DNA of 64,000 nucleotides. It comes from a virus. Lineage: Duplodnaviria > Caudoviricetes. Position 1 is the stretch's first letter. The number at the start of each line of letters is the position of its first letter. The notes beneath the pieces are model-generated. The model made no database searches. It was not told where the DNA came from and was given only the letters and a program-made list of their open reading frames with translations. Below are positions 33,376 to 64,000 of the stretch, piece by piece. The stretch covers positions 14,819-78,818 of IMG/VR virus record IMGVR_UViG_3300037789_000055. One strand, 5' to 3'. Both the position numbers and the translations under genes were made by a program.

Positions 33376-33579
33376 TTAGAGGCCGAAGCCGAACCAGAGG
33401 AGGAAACCATGGATGGTTCCAACAGGAGCAGCCAGTGCTCCGATCACAGAGAAGGCAATCTGCCCCCCGGTGGCGGGAATGCTGCTAGTAAGGGTGCTGA
33501 TCGCCCAGAGGATATGGGTGACCCAGCCGGCGAGGATCGTGATCATCAGGATCACTCCCCAGAGGAAACCGTTCTTCAT
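33376..33579 (-). CDS. Small membrane protein (2 TM), 67 aa
   Basis: Two hydrophobic helices; TGATG coupling to gapR. Confidence 0.6.
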   Translation of the reverse strand: MKNGFLWGVILMITILAGWVTHILWAISTLTSSIPATGGQIAFSVIGALAAPVGTIHGFLLWFGFGL

Positions 33580-33827
33580 CAGAGCATCCCCAGAGCTTCG
33601 CGGTACATCTCCGCAATGGCTTCTTCCTCGGCGATGTCGTCGGGTTCACGCTTGCGCAGACCGATGATCTTGCGCATCACCTTGGTGTCATAGCCGCGGC
33701 CTTTGGACTCGGCGAAAACCTCTTTGATCTGGTCGGCGATGTCCTTCTTTTCGGCTTCCAGACGCTCGATGCGTTCGATGAAGGCCCGCAGTTCCGAGGC
33801 GGTCACGCGGTAGGTGTCATCTTCCAT
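33579..33827 (-). CDS. gapR: GapR (DUF2312/UPF0335) nucleoid-associated protein
   Basis: ELRAFIERIERLEAEKKDIADQIKEVFAESKGRGYDTKVMRKIIGLRK...EEEAIAEMYREALG is the GapR family signature. Confidence 0.93.
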   Translation of the reverse strand: MEDDTYRVTASELRAFIERIERLEAEKKDIADQIKEVFAESKGRGYDTKVMRKIIGLRKREPDDIAEEEAIAEMYREALGML

Positions 33828-44206: not shown

Positions 44207-44584
44207 ATGACCGACGAAAAAATCGTGATGAAAGCCGGGGAGATCGTTGCCGCCTACGTCAGCCACAACAGCATGCCTCCTGAGAACGTTCCGGTCTTTC
44301 TGGAAACCCTAACCCACGAAATGGTCAGGCTGATCGGTGTCGAGGAAACTCCTCCTCAACCAGCCGTGCCAATCGAGGAAAGCTATGGTGATGACTTCAT
44401 CATCTGTCTGGAGGATGGGGCCCGGGTGACGCTGCTGAAACGCTACCTAGCCAAGTACCACAACATGACACCTGAGGAGTATCTCGAGAAGTGGGGTCTT
44501 CCAGAGGACTACCCGATGGTTACACCGGAGTATTCCCGCCGGAGGTCATCGATCGCCAAGGACAACGGCCTGGGTCGAAACTGA
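44207..44584 (+). CDS. mucR: Ros/MucR family transcriptional regulator, 125 aa
   Basis: EIVAAYVSHN, PAVPIEES, IICLEDG...LKRYL...H, TPEEY..KWGLP.DYPMV.P.YS..RS.IAK..GLG. Confidence 0.95.
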   Translation: MTDEKIVMKAGEIVAAYVSHNSMPPENVPVFLETLTHEMVRLIGVEETPPQPAVPIEESYGDDFIICLEDGARVTLLKRYLAKYHNMTPEEYLEKWGLPEDYPMVTPEYSRRRSSIAKDNGLGRN

Positions 44585-58710: not shown

Positions 58711-59014
58711 GATATCCTCCAACGGATGTGGGTGTTTCCCCTCACAATTCGAACTCCTGATAAACCACACTTGGTGAATGGGTGTTTCTCCAGTTGGAGA
58801 TTTCATTCTTCCAAACTTCCCGGGCCGCGAGGGGGGTGGAGTATGGTCCAGACTTTTGGAGCCGATTGAATGGTTCCAGGGGCCTCATGGGGTGATATAT
58901 CTGGACCTCATACAGGAGATAATACCTGGCGGTTGTATCCTCGGAACCTTGACCACCCCCTTCCGTGATAGGTGTTTGCAGTTTTCTGGCCATGATATCC
59001 TCCAACGGATGTGG
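58689..59014. repeat. 43-bp direct repeat (41/43 identical) covering the RBS hairpin and first codons of two adjacent genes
   Basis: 58689-58731 versus 58972-59014. Confidence 0.9.
58742..58993 (-). CDS. Hypothetical protein, 83 aa
   Basis: Start at ATG 58993 after a hairpin RBS. Confidence 0.55.
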   Translation of the reverse strand: MARKLQTPITEGGGQGSEDTTARYYLLYEVQIYHPMRPLEPFNRLQKSGPYSTPLAAREVWKNEISNWRNTHSPSVVYQEFEL

Positions 59015-59290
59015 TTAGACGCGGGTCACCTCGAATACGTGGAAGACCATCCAGTCGAGGAAGACTGTGTCGATGATCTCGGAATTCTGAGGCACCGTCC
59101 CTCCGGTCGGGACGACTTGGACAAACCGTCTCAGGTTGAAGACATCCGAGCGAGGATTAACTGTGACCCAGATCACGATGTCCTGGCCCTGCACCCCCGC
59201 TGAGATGATCCTGGCGGGGGAAGGGAGATCGAACGATTGCAGATGAAACCCATCGGCGAGGGTGAACTTCCAGATGGTCAGATCGGTCAT
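59015..59290 (-). CDS. Hypothetical protein, 91 aa
   Basis: TIWKFTL...IISAGVQ...IVIWVTVNP...VPTG, a recurrent small phage family. Confidence 0.65.
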   Translation of the reverse strand: MTDLTIWKFTLADGFHLQSFDLPSPARIISAGVQGQDIVIWVTVNPRSDVFNLRRFVQVVPTGGTVPQNSEIIDTVFLDWMVFHVFEVTRV

Positions 59291-59646
59291 TTCATCACCT
59301 CGTCTTCAAAGCAGTCGATTGCCACCTTGAGATCGTGCATCCTGTTCATGAGATCGTCGGCTTCCTCGTGGAGCAGTTCCCGGGCCCGGGTATCAACGGC
59401 GTTGGCGAGTTCAAGAAACCCAGTCTGCTCCTCGATCTGTTTTTCCATCGAAGTATACCAGTGGGAGAGAAGCTCTTCGAAAACCTTGCCGGGGATCTCG
59501 ACCCCGTTGATCTTCACTTCGGCTGTCAGTTTCCGGGTGTCCATCCACTCAGGGGTGTCCACGATTGTTCGCGCCACATCCGCATCCTGAAGAACCAGGT
59601 GGCCCGTCAGAACAGACGAGTCACCGATGGAGAAAGTGTAGCTCAT
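59287..59646 (-). CDS. Hypothetical protein, 119 aa
   Basis: Coupled ORF. Confidence 0.55.
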   Translation of the reverse strand: MSYTFSIGDSSVLTGHLVLQDADVARTIVDTPEWMDTRKLTAEVKINGVEIPGKVFEELLSHWYTSMEKQIEEQTGFLELANAVDTRARELLHEEADDLMNRMHDLKVAIDCFEDEVMK

Positions 59647-59897
59647 TTGGGATACCTCGCTGGTACTGTTTCTCGGATGTGAACCAGAGCGGCTTCGATA
59701 TCCACACGGAGTTGCTCTGTGTCTTCACGGTTGAAGGTCATCTCCAGCTTCGAGCTCCAGGTGGCCGAGAAGACCAACCCAAACTCGTATGCAAGGAGGT
59801 CCAGTAGGGCCTCCTCCTGGTAGTCATTCAGTCGCCGGGCCTCACCCTGGAGGGTGACGATCAGAAAGGGTGATGGCTCAATCGAAATGCCTTTCAT
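59643..59897 (-). CDS. Hypothetical protein, 84 aa
   Basis: Coupled ORF. Confidence 0.55.
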   Translation of the reverse strand: MKGISIEPSPFLIVTLQGEARRLNDYQEEALLDLLAYEFGLVFSATWSSKLEMTFNREDTEQLRVDIEAALVHIRETVPARYPK

Positions 59898-60370
59898 GGC
59901 CAGACCTCCGTGAATTCGGGGTATTTCAGTTTCAGTCTGGCCATGTGGTTGATGACCCCCTCCTCACCCCAGCCTCGGCGACGGACGGTCAGGGTCTGGT
60001 TCTTCCAGTCGGTCAGGAAGTCGTTGTCGATGATCAGGCCCTCGTACTGGCTCCAGGCCACAGCGCAGAGTCCAATGTCCACGTACTTGTTCTGGCGCTT
60101 AGGGGAGACGTAGCTCGTGATTTCACAGATGTTGATGTTGCCCCGGCGCCAGGTGGCGTGGATGTGGTCGTGGTCATAGTCGCTGTCGTCATGCGACTGT
60201 TGAACAAACCCCATCTCCTCGAGTTTGAGGAACTTGGTGGGCAGTGCCACGTCGATATCTGAGACCGGTCGATTGAGGAGCATGTCCCGCCAGAAGCCTC
60301 CATAGATCACGGCCCCCGGCAGTTCCTTCGCCACTTCCTCGGCGATGTGGTAGGCGATGGTCAGTTTCAT
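59894..60370 (-). CDS. Minimal nucleotidyltransferase (poly(A) polymerase/CCA-adding head-like), 158 aa
   Basis: IYGGFWRDMLLNRPVSDIDV; VDIGLCAVA. Confidence 0.8.
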   Translation of the reverse strand: MKLTIAYHIAEEVAKELPGAVIYGGFWRDMLLNRPVSDIDVALPTKFLKLEEMGFVQQSHDDSDYDHDHIHATWRRGNINICEITSYVSPKRQNKYVDIGLCAVAWSQYEGLIIDNDFLTDWKNQTLTVRRRGWGEEGVINHMARLKLKYPEFTEVWP

Positions 60371-60585
60371 GGTGTCACCTCATAGTGATGAGAGTTCCCG
60401 ATGTAGGATCGGGTCAGCCAGCCGCGGTTGTAGAGATCGAGGCACACGTTCCGAACGGTCCCGATCGGCAGGCCAGTGGCGACGGCGATGTCCTTGGCCC
60501 GGGTCGCAGCTGGATGGGTTTCCAGATATGCAGTGATCAGGTCCTCAGAGGACTTCATCTGCACTCCGGCTTCACGCAGTTTCAT
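60367..60585 (-). CDS. Winged-helix DNA-binding protein, 72 aa
   Basis: RAKDIAVATGLPIGTVRNVCLDLYNRGWL. Confidence 0.75.
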   Translation of the reverse strand: MKLREAGVQMKSSEDLITAYLETHPAATRAKDIAVATGLPIGTVRNVCLDLYNRGWLTRSYIGNSHHYEVTP

Positions 60586-60839
60586 ATTCCCATGATCCTT
60601 TTGAAGTTGCTCTGAACGTGGTGCTCACCTGCTTTGAACCCCCGCCCATAGCCGGCTGAGAAGGCCTCGTAGAAGTGGGTCAGGAGGTGAGGCGCCTGTT
60701 CGAGGGACAGGGTCGGGATCGAGAAGATATGCCACTTGTTGTGGAGCCAGACCTCCGTCAGCATCTCATACCGATAGAGTGTCCATTCCTCGTATCTGTC
60801 GATCTCGGGTTCAGGTGGCATCAGGTCGTTGGGTCTCAT
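60582..60839 (-). CDS. Hypothetical protein, 85 aa
   Basis: Coupled ORF. Confidence 0.55.
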   Translation of the reverse strand: MRPNDLMPPEPEIDRYEEWTLYRYEMLTEVWLHNKWHIFSIPTLSLEQAPHLLTHFYEAFSAGYGRGFKAGEHHVQSNFKRIMGI

Positions 60840-61044
60840 TGGGTGGTACCACCGTTGTTTGGATTTCGGTTCGGATCGTGGCGGGGAGGTGGGTCAGTTT
60901 GGCCCACTCCCGAGCTGCCCGGTCGTCGTCACCATGGGTGACCGAAGGCCAGTAATCCTCAGGGATCCGGATTTGGGTTCCAAAGGGGTCCGGACATTGG
61001 AGGATCACTGAACGGATTTGGTCCCGGGTGATGGTTATACCCAT
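60811..61044 (-). CDS. Hypothetical protein, 77 aa
   Basis: Coupled ORF. Confidence 0.5.
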   Translation of the reverse strand: MGITITRDQIRSVILQCPDPFGTQIRIPEDYWPSVTHGDDDRAAREWAKLTHLPATIRTEIQTTVVPPNETQRPDAT

Positions 61045-61487
61045 GGTGCTTCTCCGGCCATGACCCGCCGAACTGCGGCCGCAGCCTGGGCCGGGGTGCA
61101 GTTGTTGGGGGCGAGACTCTGGTCAAAGAGTTCATGACCCACCCACCATCTCTCCTGTGATATGTGGAGCCCCAGGAAGTCAGCCGCGGTATTCCGGATA
61201 CTGGTCCAGAGGGTGGTCATCTTGGCCTGCGCCTCGAGGGAGGGGAACAGTTGTCCCTCCGGGGCCTGGCTCATCAGATAGGCCGCACCGGCCATACAAC
61301 AGGCCGTTCCGCAGTCCGGTGTTGGATTGGGGTGGGCGTCGATGTATTCCTGGAGCGTGAGATAGTCGGTTTGGTCATAGACATCCTGATCGGTAAGAGG
61401 ACAGACACCGACGTTCATGTCGAAGATGACGTGGGGAGCACCGGCCTCCAACCACTGGGCCAGTTTTTCGAGGTTCTCGAGGTTCAT
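61035..61487 (-). CDS. Hypothetical protein, 150 aa (paralogue of 62861..63193)
   Basis: FDM...CGTACCMAG...LF...TPAQA. Confidence 0.65.
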   Translation of the reverse strand: MNLENLEKLAQWLEAGAPHVIFDMNVGVCPLTDQDVYDQTDYLTLQEYIDAHPNPTPDCGTACCMAGAAYLMSQAPEGQLFPSLEAQAKMTTLWTSIRNTAADFLGLHISQERWWVGHELFDQSLAPNNCTPAQAAAAVRRVMAGEAPWV

Positions 61488-61489
61488 TG

Positions 61490-61925
61490 GAAGATCTCCA
61501 GTTCAGAGGGTTGGTGCTTGATGGGTGTTGATGACGAACTCACCGGACATCCCCATGGAGTCGTACAGATCCCGCTGTAGGATTTTGGCCATGGTGGTAT
61601 TGGGTGAGAACACTTGTTGTTCCACCCGCCAGCAATCTTCGAGCTCGGACTGAGGAACCCGAAACTCCACAGTGAAGATGTGGATGGTTGCTTCAGGGTC
61701 AGGCAGGGGGTCGAAATAGAAGACACAATCCGGATGGGCCATCATCCCCTCTTCAATCGAGAGGTAGTCTGCTGACGAGCCCCGTTCTCCTGAGGGTCCA
61801 TCCGAAAATTGCCATTCAGTGTCCCCGATATCAGCACGACCGGCGTGGGCGTCCGCGTCAGTGACGATACCCTGCACGATCCAGATTTCACGTTTTTTAG
61901 ACATCGTCGAAGATCTCCAGTTCAG
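61490..61925. repeat. 17-bp direct repeat GAAGATCTCCAGTTCAG flanking one gene
   Basis: Identical copies at 61490-61506 and 61909-61925, each containing a GGAG RBS on the - strand. Confidence 0.85.
61503..61904 (-). CDS. Hypothetical protein, 133 aa
   Basis: Start at ATG 61904 after GGAG. Confidence 0.6.
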   Translation of the reverse strand: MSKKREIWIVQGIVTDADAHAGRADIGDTEWQFSDGPSGERGSSADYLSIEEGMMAHPDCVFYFDPLPDPEATIHIFTVEFRVPQSELEDCWRVEQQVFSPNTTMAKILQRDLYDSMGMSGEFVINTHQAPTL

Positions 61926-62151
61926 GATCGGGGTCAACGTCCACGTCGAAGAGGACGTAGTCAGTGGTTTGGGTGGAGAGGATCTGGGTCAGGATCGGGC
62001 AGTTTTCGACGTTGGCCTGTTTCCAGATGAAGAAGCCAGCGTCGTTCGAATAGGCAACGGTCATCCCCGCCTTGGTGATGTCGGACAGGACCATCCTGAT
62101 CTCGTCAGCTGGGAGATGACACAGTGCGATCTCGGAAAAGGTTCTCGTCAT
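61897..62151 (-). CDS. Hypothetical protein, 84 aa
   Basis: ATGA overlap with the ctrA stop; LCHLPADE. Confidence 0.6.
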
Positions 62152-62834
62152 GCCACGACCTGTTCCGGTTCGGGCTCCTGCAACAGATACCCACGACCCC
62201 AAATCGTATGGATGTGCCGGCCGGCGGTGCCGAGCTTCTTCCGCAACTTGCAGATGAACACGTCGATGATCTTCAATTCCGGCTCGTCCATGCCACCATA
62301 AAGGTGGTTGAGGAACATCTCTTTCGTCAGCGTCGTACCCTTGCGCAGGCAGAGCAGTTCCAGCATCTGGTATTCCTTGCCGGTCAGATACACCTGGCGG
62401 TCGTTGACCTTGACGGTCTGGGAGTCGAGATTGACGCTGATGGGACCGGTCTGGATGATGGCCTGGGCGTGGCCCTTGGACCGGCGGATGACCGCGTGGA
62501 TGCGACCGATGAGTTCCTCCCGGTGGAATGGTTTGGTCAGATAGTCGTCGCCCCCGAGACCAAAGAACTTGATCTTGCTTTCGGTGCTGTCGTCGCCGGT
62601 GAGGGCCAGGACCGGGGTGTTGATACGATCCACGCGGATCTGGCGCAGTACGTCATGCCCTGAGATGTCGGGCAGGTTCAAATCGAGCAGTACCAGGTCA
62701 TAGTCATAGAACTTGATGAGATCGACGCCCTCTTCCCCCAGATCGGTCGAGTAGACGTTGAAGCCAGCATGAGTGAGCATGGTCTCGACGCTACGGGCGG
62801 TGTTGGGATCGTCTTCGATGTGCAGAATTCGCAT
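62148..62834 (-). CDS. ctrA: CtrA cell-cycle response regulator (full length), 228 aa
   Basis: [21 protein letters not shown] (D51), [14 protein letters not shown] and [50 protein letters not shown], which are diagnostic CtrA sequences. Confidence 0.97.
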
Positions 62835-62860
62835 GTTTTCCTCCAGCGGAAATGTGGTGA

Positions 62861-63193
62861 TTACAGGTAGTCATCCCAGAGCTTGAACTGGTCGACCTTC
62901 AGGTCCTCCAGTGCTCGAATGGCCATGGCAGGGGTGATATCCGGGAGTGGGACCTTACTCCCTATGGCCACGAACAGCTCCTGACCAAGATCAGGGGAAA
63001 TCCCCAGGGCTTGGCAGTTCTCGGAGAAGGTGCTCTGATAACCAGTCGGGTCCAGGATCAGGTTCGAGAACCCGGCGATACAGGCCACGGTTCCGCAGTC
63101 CCTGTGACGTACCCAGTAGCACATATCGAATTTGGCGATCTCCTCGGCCTGGATCGCGGCGATGATTTCGTCGATGTGTTCAACGTTCGGCAT
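62861..63193 (-). CDS. Hypothetical protein, 110 aa (paralogue of 61035..61487)
   Basis: FDM...CGTVACIAG...LF...TPAMA. Confidence 0.65.
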
Positions 63194-63443
63194 TGATAAA
63201 CTCCTCACAGAATTCCTTGAGATCGCGCATTCTCCAGAGGTGGAACCGGTCCCATTGTTCGAATTCGATCACGCAGTCGATCGATCCATAGTCTCCGATC
63301 TCGATCGACTGCAGTTCGGGAAACTTCCCCTCGGCCCGTTTGATGAAGTCGAAGAAGGCGTCTGGTCCGAGCTGCATGAACGGGATCGGGTCGTCCGGAT
63401 CGAGTTGGAACCGGACAGTGTTCATTTGGAGTTCGAATTTCAT
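63180..63443 (-). CDS. Hypothetical acidic protein, 87 aa
   Basis: Coupled ORF. Confidence 0.55.
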   Translation of the reverse strand: MKFELQMNTVRFQLDPDDPIPFMQLGPDAFFDFIKRAEGKFPELQSIEIGDYGSIDCVIEFEQWDRFHLWRMRDLKEFCEEFINAER

Positions 63444-63805
63444 TCTCTTCGAGCCTCGTGTTGGGCCAAGGTCATGAGTCGGCCTCGGGTTGAGTTGGCT
63501 GGCCGATTGATCAGCTTCGCGATCTGGTTTGTCGGCATGCCGGTGGCTTCGAGTTCGAGCAGACGCTTGTCCTCTTCAGGGGTGAACCGCCGCACCTTGT
63601 AGCCGTTGCGAGTGTATTGCGACGGCTGCTTGGGGCTGGGGCGACGGCGGTGCGCCGGGAGATCAGCTCCGAGCCTCAGGCAGTGGTACATGACGGACTG
63701 TTCGGTCATGTCGATACGCCGGGCTATCTGACCGATGCTGAGGCCTTCCTCGCGCAGCTCCGCGGCTGTGTGGGCCTGTTCCTCGGTGTACTTCCGCCTA
63801 GCCAT
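63440..63805 (-). CDS. Tandem-HTH protein: GcrA-like N-terminal HTH plus Myb-like HTH, 121 aa
   Basis: YTEEQ...EGLSIGQIARRIDMTEQSV...RLG and FTPEEDKRLLEL...QIAKLINRP. Confidence 0.7.
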   Translation of the reverse strand: MARRKYTEEQAHTAAELREEGLSIGQIARRIDMTEQSVMYHCLRLGADLPAHRRRPSPKQPSQYTRNGYKVRRFTPEEDKRLLELEATGMPTNQIAKLINRPANSTRGRLMTLAQHEARRE

Positions 63806-64000
63806 CGGGGATCAACTCCACCGCGACGACCTTCCGGTCCAGGACCTTGATCTGCAGTTGGATCGGGATCTCATGATCCTCCGTTGCGCCGCAGTTGTAG
63901 AATTCCTCCAGGGTGCGGTCATAGTGACCTTTGAAGGTGTAGACATCAGGTTCGGGTTCGGGTTCGGGTTCAGGGGCACGGCGCCAGAAGGAGACCCTGT
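63798..64000 (-). CDS. Hypothetical protein (5'-truncated at window edge)
   Basis: Open frame ...RRAPEPEPEPEPDVYTF...LIPDG* ending in TAG at 63798-63800. Confidence 0.55.
   Translation of the reverse strand, partial: RVSFWRRAPEPEPEPEPDVYTFKGHYDRTLEEFYNCGATEDHEIPIQLQIKVLDRKVVAVELIPDG

Follow-up and report, generated by a model that had tools for sequence, protein, structure and literature searches.

A full-length CtrA orthologue of Rhodobacterales type in a closed temperate siphophage genome

Why would a bacteriophage carry a complete copy of a bacterial master regulator, and on whose promoters would that copy act? CtrA is such a regulator, which in marine roseobacters governs motility, gene transfer agents (GTAs), competence and surface attachment. 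The question is raised by a 64,000-nucleotide stretch of viral DNA (the window), bases 14819-78818 of a 78,818-bp IMG/VR record (IMGVR_UViG_3300037789_000055; CheckV completeness 100%), in which one open reading frame encodes a CtrA response regulator. A sequence-only reading of the window, made without database searches, had proposed that this gene is intact, that its recognition helix is of host type, and that the phage uses it to impose a CtrA-ON state on its host. By its sequence the protein is a genuine CtrA orthologue of Rhodobacterales type; it is encoded within a closed phage genome, which holds neither a CtrA box nor a kinase of its own.

Identity, origin and integrity of the phage CtrA

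The phage protein passes the NCBIfam CtrA equivalog model NF045991 from end to end, with a score of 364.5 bits against a cut-off of 350 and coverage of model positions 1-224 of 224; the runner-up family, PmrA, reaches 162.6 bits against a cut-off of 330. The small margin over the NF045991 cut-off reflects the divergence of the phage protein. Both the receiver and the OmpR-type winged-helix domain are present, in agreement with the full-length architecture that the sequence-only reading had described, and every motif quoted there lies where it was placed. The phosphorylation residues E7, D8 and D9 (EDD, 7-9), D51 (within DLNLPD), T79 (ALTG, 77-80) and K101 (TKPF, 100-103) are all kept, and the quoted DNA-recognition stretch occupies residues 184-201. 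The motifs THA (21-23) and KPFHREEL (101-108), taken in that reading to be Rhodobacterales-like, do match the Rhodobacterales states, THA and HREEL, where Caulobacterales-type copies have KSE and HKDE. The closest solved structure is that of the CtrA receiver from Brucella abortus in a crystal with ChpT (4QPJ chain C, E = 3e-44). Among phage protein families, the full-length PHROG 731 scores the protein at 202 bits, and PHROG 31800 covers its residues 131-217 only; with its complete receiver, the phage CtrA falls outside the receiver-less type of roseophage RDJL phi 1 gp37, to which PHROG 31800 corresponds.

Phylogenetic analysis places the protein among cellular CtrAs of the Rhodobacterales. 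The first tree comprised 28 Rhodobacterales, 7 Caulobacterales and 3 Sphingomonadales CtrAs, 30 further rows from searched alphaproteobacterial genomes, 4 rows with an unclear or odd label, 15 viral copies and 2 outgroups. With viral rows and outgroups included, the phage CtrA nests in the Rhodobacterales CtrA clade with a Shimodaira-Hasegawa-like approximate likelihood-ratio test (SH-aLRT) support of 99; in a careful search from which the other long viral rows were left out, the ultrafast bootstrap (UFBoot) and SH-aLRT supports for this placement are 100/100. The position of the protein inside the clade is not resolved by the trees. Membership of the CtrA clade, on which the sequence-only reading had staked its identification, is thus borne out.

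The phage protein has diverged far from its cellular relatives. Its terminal branch measures 2.0 changes per site, 14-fold the host median of 0.14, and while 65 named Rhodobacterales CtrAs share a mean mutual identity of 86%, their identity to the phage CtrA averages 72% and reaches 74% at most. A search of 5.8 billion proteins returned none more than 76% identical to it except the protein itself, on one contig. This ceiling on identity to any cellular protein, together with the long branch, argues that the capture of ctrA was not recent. The sequence thus points to a Rhodobacterales origin, followed by fast evolution or from a divergent host that has not been sampled. Base composition was considered as a marker of foreign origin and is uninformative: the GC content of ctrA (0.578) and its GC content at third codon positions (GC3, 0.79) lie within the ranges both of the phage genes (GC 0.55-0.60, GC3 0.60-0.81) and of host ctrA genes (GC 0.47-0.64, GC3 0.52-0.91).

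Two cellular contigs met in this survey deserve separate mention. A Sagittula marina assembly holds a second, divergent CtrA besides its normal chromosomal ctrA, on a tiny contig (L193; G001 contig 41, 1426 bp); this protein is 66% identical to the phage CtrA and ends in ...NAA. Two CtrA matches per genome were seen in only 2 of the 108 genomes with a match across the class. The CtrA on a contig (L143) of a metagenome-assembled genome labelled as the betaproteobacterium Variovorax paradoxus is of the typical Rhodobacterales kind and falls among Tabrizicola-like sequences; the contig is probably mis-binned.

The pattern of substitutions indicates that the phage CtrA is still under purifying selection and is apparently a working protein. 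Across the 65 Rhodobacterales CtrAs, 167 positions are at least 95% conserved and 61 are variable; the phage protein differs at 25 of the former and at 38 of the latter (Fisher p = 1e-11). The changes at conserved positions have a mean BLOSUM62 score of +0.56, against -1.24 for random replacement, and none of 2000 random draws was as good. Changes that are few and conservative where hosts are conserved are the mark of such selection. Residues 163-201 are identical to the consensus of the 65 host proteins, and within residues 150-204 the sole departure from it is S162C, which leaves helix 2, the following loop and the recognition helix unchanged. From this unchanged recognition region it is natural to infer that the phage CtrA shares the DNA specificity of the host protein.

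The C-terminus departs from the host pattern. The 65 host CtrAs measure 224-239 residues, with all but one in the range 235-239, and their usual ending is A-x-[G/S/N]-[A/G] (AVGA, AASA, AIGA, AMGA, AANG and others). The phage protein stops at residue 228 with ...EQVVA, about 10 residues before the host end, and does not have the conserved hydrophobic, Ala-rich tail; the sequence-only reading had rightly remarked on a short C-terminus ending in VVA. This tail is a peripheral rather than a core defining feature of CtrA. In Caulobacter the terminal Ala-Ala of CtrA is part of the ClpXP degron, and the ClpXP degradation cited in the earlier reading is Caulobacter biology.

Phage genome, phosphate input and DNA targets

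The genome around ctrA is that of a closed temperate siphophage. The ends of the record share an exact 127-bp overlap, which makes the assembly circular, with a genome of 78.7 kb. About 125 genes are predicted by simple greedy calling, with a coding density of 94%. The structural genes include those for the large terminase, portal, major head protein, tape measure, tail assembly protein (tail J) and a central tail fibre of 2405 residues; primase, DNA polymerase, helicase, SbcCD, a C5 methyltransferase and an integrase are also encoded. Among cultured phages, the terminase comes closest to those of Achromobacter phage JWF (54%) and Caulobacter phage Seuss (46%), two siphophages of about 80 kb. 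The ctrA gene lies within a long minus-strand block of early and replication genes. Host contamination and a prophage flank were considered as sources of the gene and rejected on the strength of the circular assembly, the phage genes on both sides, the tight packing and the cellular identity of at most 76%; since no protein exceeds that identity, stray host DNA or a prophage flank is very unlikely.

The phage brings neither the phosphate donors of CtrA nor its canonical sites. No HPTransfase (ChpT) and no HATPase_c domain was found in the phage, in searches that matched both families in control genomes, so any phosphorylation of the phage CtrA must come from the host. No TTAA-N7-TTAA box is present at 0 or 1 mismatch in the whole 78.7-kb circular genome, for which a first-order Markov simulation expects 0.1 exact and 3.8 one-mismatch boxes. 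The site form of Rhodobacter capsulatus CtrA, GTAAC-N6-TTAAC (PMC6363796), was included in the one-mismatch search. The sequence-only reading had found no full box at the TTAA sites it inspected, and this absence now extends to the entire genome. If the phage CtrA binds the canonical box, its targets would therefore lie on the host chromosome, the location which that reading had favoured and to which the host-like recognition region also points.

The tetramer TTAA itself is rare in the phage, with 26 sites in 78.7 kb, mostly at stop codons or in AT-rich gaps. Its density of 0.33/kb compares with about 1.05/kb over 415 kb of Rhodobacterales sequence surrounding host ctrA genes, even though the phage is the more AT-rich. 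The observed/expected ratio for TTAA is 0.15 by base composition and 1.37 by an order-2 model. Across the whole genome CTAA, TTAG, TTAA, CTTA, TAAG and CTAG are all depleted, with ratios of 0.12-0.18 by base composition. Specific avoidance of half-sites is ruled out by the order-2 ratio and by the depletion of all TA-containing words, and it is this general depletion that accounts for the rarity of TTAA.

At 387 bp, the intergenic gap just after the primase gene (genome 3286-3672, outside the window) is the longest in the phage, and it stands at the head of the block to which ctrA belongs. Within it are a 16-bp repeat in three tandem copies (CCTCTTCGGACCTCAG), a GC stem and T run resembling a terminator, and a pair of GGTTAA half-sites spaced 70 bp apart; the gap is probably a regulatory region for the accessory block. 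No separate promoter of sigma-70 type and no terminator was detected around ctrA, in a scan whose use of the Escherichia coli consensus makes this negative weak.

The features of the locus are collected in Table 1. The overlap of the ctrA stop codon with the start of the next frame suggests that ctrA and the downstream 84-residue frame are translationally coupled. A hairpin hiding the ctrA Shine-Dalgarno sequence appears in the minimum-energy fold, yet is no better than in shuffled sequences (-4.7 kcal/mol, z = 0.11) and was rejected. The proteins of two minus-strand frames that flank ctrA, 62861-63208 and 61035-61487, share a DCGT-x-x-C-[IM]-AG motif with 8 of 15 residues identical (E = 8e-4, a single comparison), and homologues of the second, of 150 residues, are found near primase in relatives L198 and L199. 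The window contains no tRNA genes.

Table 1. Coordinates of ctrA and associated features in the window.
Feature	Position in window	Strand	Remarks
ctrA coding sequence	62148..62834	-	228 aa plus TGA stop; open reading frame list; NCBIfam NF045991 match
Receiver domain, residues 3-112	62499..62828	-	Pfam PF00072 (Response_reg), 93 bits; D51 codon 62682-62684
OmpR-type winged-helix DNA-binding domain, residues 146-218	62181..62399	-	Pfam PF00486 (Trans_reg_C), 70.7 bits
Shine-Dalgarno sequence GGAGG	62840..62844	-	5 nt before ctrA ATG, within 26-nt gap after upstream stop
Downstream small open reading frame, 84 aa	61897..62151	-	No family and no PHROG match; its ATG overlaps the ctrA stop (ATGA)
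Upstream small open reading frame, 115 aa	62861..63208	-	Weak match to PHROG 30739 only
Variable accessory block with ctrA, window part	58884..64000	-	Protein synteny with relative L196
GapR homologue	33579-33827	-	PF10073, 112.8 bits; in both near relatives (83%, 55% identical)
MucR/Ros homologue	44207-44584	+	PF05443, 124.4 bits; in nearer relative only (52%)

Other regulators of host type were sought in the same genome. Two near relatives of the phage are 90-92% complete, with terminases 73% and 61% identical to its own, and CtrA, GapR and MucR are distributed differently among them, which indicates separate acquisition rather than uptake as a kit. For the product of 63440-63805, upstream of ctrA, identification as a GcrA homologue is not supported, since its Pfam GcrA score of 22.3 bits is below the cut-off of 26.9 and generic helix-turn-helix families score higher; its PHROG assignment is to a D5-like transcriptional regulator. 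A CcrM-like methylase was discarded as a further cell-cycle gene, as the 579-residue methyltransferase is a C5-cytosine enzyme.

Viral relatives of the phage CtrA

The GenBank 'ctrA' of roseophage RDJL phi 1 (Xiamenvirus, gp37) encodes 151 residues and no receiver, as Hynes 2016 (PMC5026251) and Fogg 2019 (PMC6363796) each point out, and genes for the DNA-binding domain only are also found in RDJL2/3/6, in about 21 Rhodobacter capsulatus phages and in Paracoccus phage vB_PmaS-R3. Like the window protein, gp37 is a phage-encoded descendant of CtrA with a KIIDVF-type recognition helix, and the two are 50% identical over 90 residues; gp37 has no receiver, whereas the window copy keeps the whole phosphorylation switch. 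The gene for gp37 lies between gafA and rcc01866 homologues, and such neighbours were not found by BLASTP in the window phage, the gafA-type gene (gp38) of RDJL phi 1 giving no match there. No full-length phage CtrA was reported in the literature searched, which covers few subscription journals.

Full-length copies are nevertheless recurrent among uncultivated viruses. Fifteen further IMG/VR contigs (L002-L004, L007, L011-L021) carry full-length CtrA-like genes whose products are 42-64% identical to the window protein. They resemble it in their receiver and winged helix, their long branches, and their position in phage replication or early modules near primase, polymerase and helicase; at least in L002, L011, L012 and L016 the neighbours on either side are phage genes for primase, polymerase, helicase or tail proteins. 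The window phage has no close relative among the fifteen contigs. At least three parts of the tree contain viral copies, four of which are inside the Caulobacterales clade, and this scatter indicates several independent captures. The phosphoacceptor is replaced in 6 of the 15 (D51E in L003, L004, L016 and L019, D51A in L018 and D51N in L017), and these proteins look phosphorylation-independent; most of them also lack the second Asp of the acidic pocket. The window CtrA is the least diverged viral copy, as it differs at 15% of the positions that hosts conserve and the others differ at 19-40% of them. Dozens more viral contigs carry the winged helix only.

Further arrangements were seen among the viral contigs. 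In many unrelated ones (L002, L004, L008, L016, L017, L027, L039-L042, L051, L055 and L058) the CtrA-like gene has a GapR gene no more than 10 kb away, which in L002 and L017 is its immediate upstream neighbour; CtrA-like and GapR genes may form a recurrent pair in alphaproteobacterial phages. A 165-kb viral contig (L009) has an open frame of 136 residues that couples a CtrA winged helix (67% identical) to a new N-terminus, and in L006 a CtrA fragment is fused in frame to unrelated upstream sequence and broken by a stop codon.

Comparison with cellular and phage systems defines what is new here. With the CtrA proteins of R. capsulatus, Dinoroseobacter shibae and Roseobacter denitrificans, which stand at the end of the CckA-ChpT-CtrA phosphorelay, the phage copy shares its architecture, clade, phosphorylation residues and residues 163-201; it differs in having no sciP or chpT neighbourhood, in a deletion of 3 residues before the wing and in its missing tail. 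Other phages read the host protein: Brevundimonas and Caulobacter phages carry CtrA boxes (PMC9437464), and phage Jorvik requires host ctrA (PMC10589892). In both cases phage development is tied to the alphaproteobacterial CtrA network, but the host-reading phages carry sites and rely on the host protein, while the window phage carries the protein and no site. Receiver-less derivatives have been known since the publications of 2016-2019; a full-length, switch-intact CtrA in a closed phage genome is new. To judge from the sequences compared, the window ctrA is the least derived member of a recurrent and mostly unpublished phenomenon.

How the phage CtrA may act

We propose that the phage supplies a captured CtrA which is phosphorylated by the host and acts on host CtrA promoters in the favour of the phage, a model to which we give about an even chance. 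Under this model, ctrA would be expressed alongside the adjacent early genes in lytic growth or induction; its product would be phosphorylated by host ChpT, or would be partly active when unphosphorylated, as host CtrA is at some Rhodobacter promoters. It would then bind host promoters of the TTAA-N7-TTAA type and shift the host regulon of flagella, chemotaxis, the GTA and its lysis genes, competence, quorum sensing and cyclic di-GMP to the advantage of the phage. The phage would thereby set an extra level of CtrA outside host control, the turnover of which may be altered by the shortened tail. We infer the expression, phosphorylation and DNA binding of the phage CtrA, and the direction of its effect, from sequence. 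The CtrA-ON state of the sequence-only reading is plausible, and its foundation stands, namely an intact Rhodobacterales-type orthologue in a closed phage with no box or kinase of its own; the replication block that formed part of it rests on Caulobacter biology, and CtrA is not known to block replication in R. capsulatus. Mutations in the CtrA phosphorelay alter flagella, biofilm and roseophage sensitivity and are a main route to roseophage resistance (PMC13392355).

Several observations weigh against this model, both in the protein and in its distribution. In the DNA-binding domain the loop ahead of the wing has 3 residues fewer than in hosts and E209 is replaced by His, changes that could alter the affinity for DNA. 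In the receiver, I77A, G90F, F93L and A110G each occur in 0 of 108 cellular CtrAs across the class, A95G in 2, and I16V and L18T in 1 each. The unusual residues sit on helix alpha-1 (I16V, L18T) and on the alpha4-beta5-alpha5 face (I77A, G90F, F93L, A95G, A110G), which in OmpR-family receivers are the docking helix for the phosphodonor and the dimer face, respectively; ChpT docking or dimerisation of the phage CtrA may therefore be altered. The retained pocket is consistent with a need for phosphorylation and no proof of it: at a rate of change of 15% over conserved positions, chance alone would spare all six residues in about one case in three (0.85^6), so that their retention taken alone is weak evidence. 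Nor is the gene a fixture of its lineage. It lies downstream of primase in a variable block of about 7.6 kb, which starts at window 58884, passes the circular junction and ends at genome position 2581, and in place of which the closest relative has 1.6 kb. That relative is without ctrA at the syntenic position, and neither near relative (G155, G156) gave a CtrA match, which makes ctrA, on this comparison, an accessory gene of the phage lineage. No prophage related by terminase (E <= 1e-50) was found in 401 sampled Rhodobacterales genomes. Activation, interference and non-canonical sites in the phage fit the sequence equally well, and the selective advantage of switching the regulon on would still be a supposition.

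Interference with the host protein is the first of the alternatives that this leaves, and we regard it as fairly unlikely. Here the phage CtrA would antagonise host CtrA, by draining phosphate from ChpT, by forming poor heterodimers or by occupying boxes without activating, and flagella, GTA uptake and competence would be shut down, for example to exclude superinfecting flagellotropic phages or GTAs, or to stop GTA-driven lysis. The changes at receiver positions invariant across the class, on the dimer face and alpha-1, and the loss of the host tail are what such an antagonist might show, and a DNA-binding head like that of the host would compete for the same sites. Lost CtrA signalling confers roseophage resistance through the loss of flagella (PMC13392355), and a lowered CtrA output would thus protect an infected or lysogenic cell. 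The unchanged recognition helix and preceding loop are, on the other hand, as expected of an activator, the substitutions are mostly conservative, and the gene shows no promoter or terminator of its own for expression in a lysogen, a point that is weak for the reason given above. It is a doubtful proposition that the protein instead drives promoters of the phage itself, through half-sites or a shifted motif and gated by the host phosphorelay. The same role has been proposed for the receiver-less CtrA-like proteins, whose genes have regulatory genes for neighbours in RDJL phi 1, 21 R. capsulatus phages and the Paracoccus phage, and half-sites are thought important for CtrA control in R. capsulatus (PMC7232146). 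The paired GGTTAA half-sites in the gap that heads the ctrA block, and TTAACCAT at window position 512, would be candidates for such control; against them stand the absence of any full box at up to one mismatch, the rarity of TTAA and its confinement mostly to stop codons and AT-rich gaps, the occurrence of close TTAA pairs elsewhere too, and a closest relative that shares the core genes without ctrA.

That the gene is a passenger or an artefact, host DNA recently picked up or mis-assembled and with no role in the phage, is very improbable in our estimation. Its variable block, its absence from the syntenic site of the closest relative, the lack of a match in the second, 90%-complete relative and the restriction of the exact protein to one contig would all be explained in this way; the limited identity to cellular proteins and the long terminal branch speak against a recent capture, however, and the intact frame, substitutions that avoid conserved positions, tight packing with a stop/start overlap and circular assembly are not those of a stray fragment. 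A further reading takes the host-like DNA specificity, the reshaped receiver and the clipped tail together as a master switch rewired for private use, and we consider it improbable. The phage CtrA would then pair only with itself and evade host dephosphorylation or turnover, so that the phage would govern the motility, GTA and competence regulon of the host independently, and the dead-receiver (D51E/A/N) and receiver-less phage copies would be later stages of the same evolutionary path.

If our proposal of a captured CtrA acting on host promoters is true, a complete and switchable CtrA without sites of its own would be a clear case of a virus supplying the master regulator of its host so as to reprogramme the cell. 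As ctrA is a small gene for which assays exist, it is a good and cheap target for experiment. The window CtrA, together with the dead-receiver and receiver-less viral copies, forms a natural series in which a captured two-component regulator can be followed as it loses the link to its signal.

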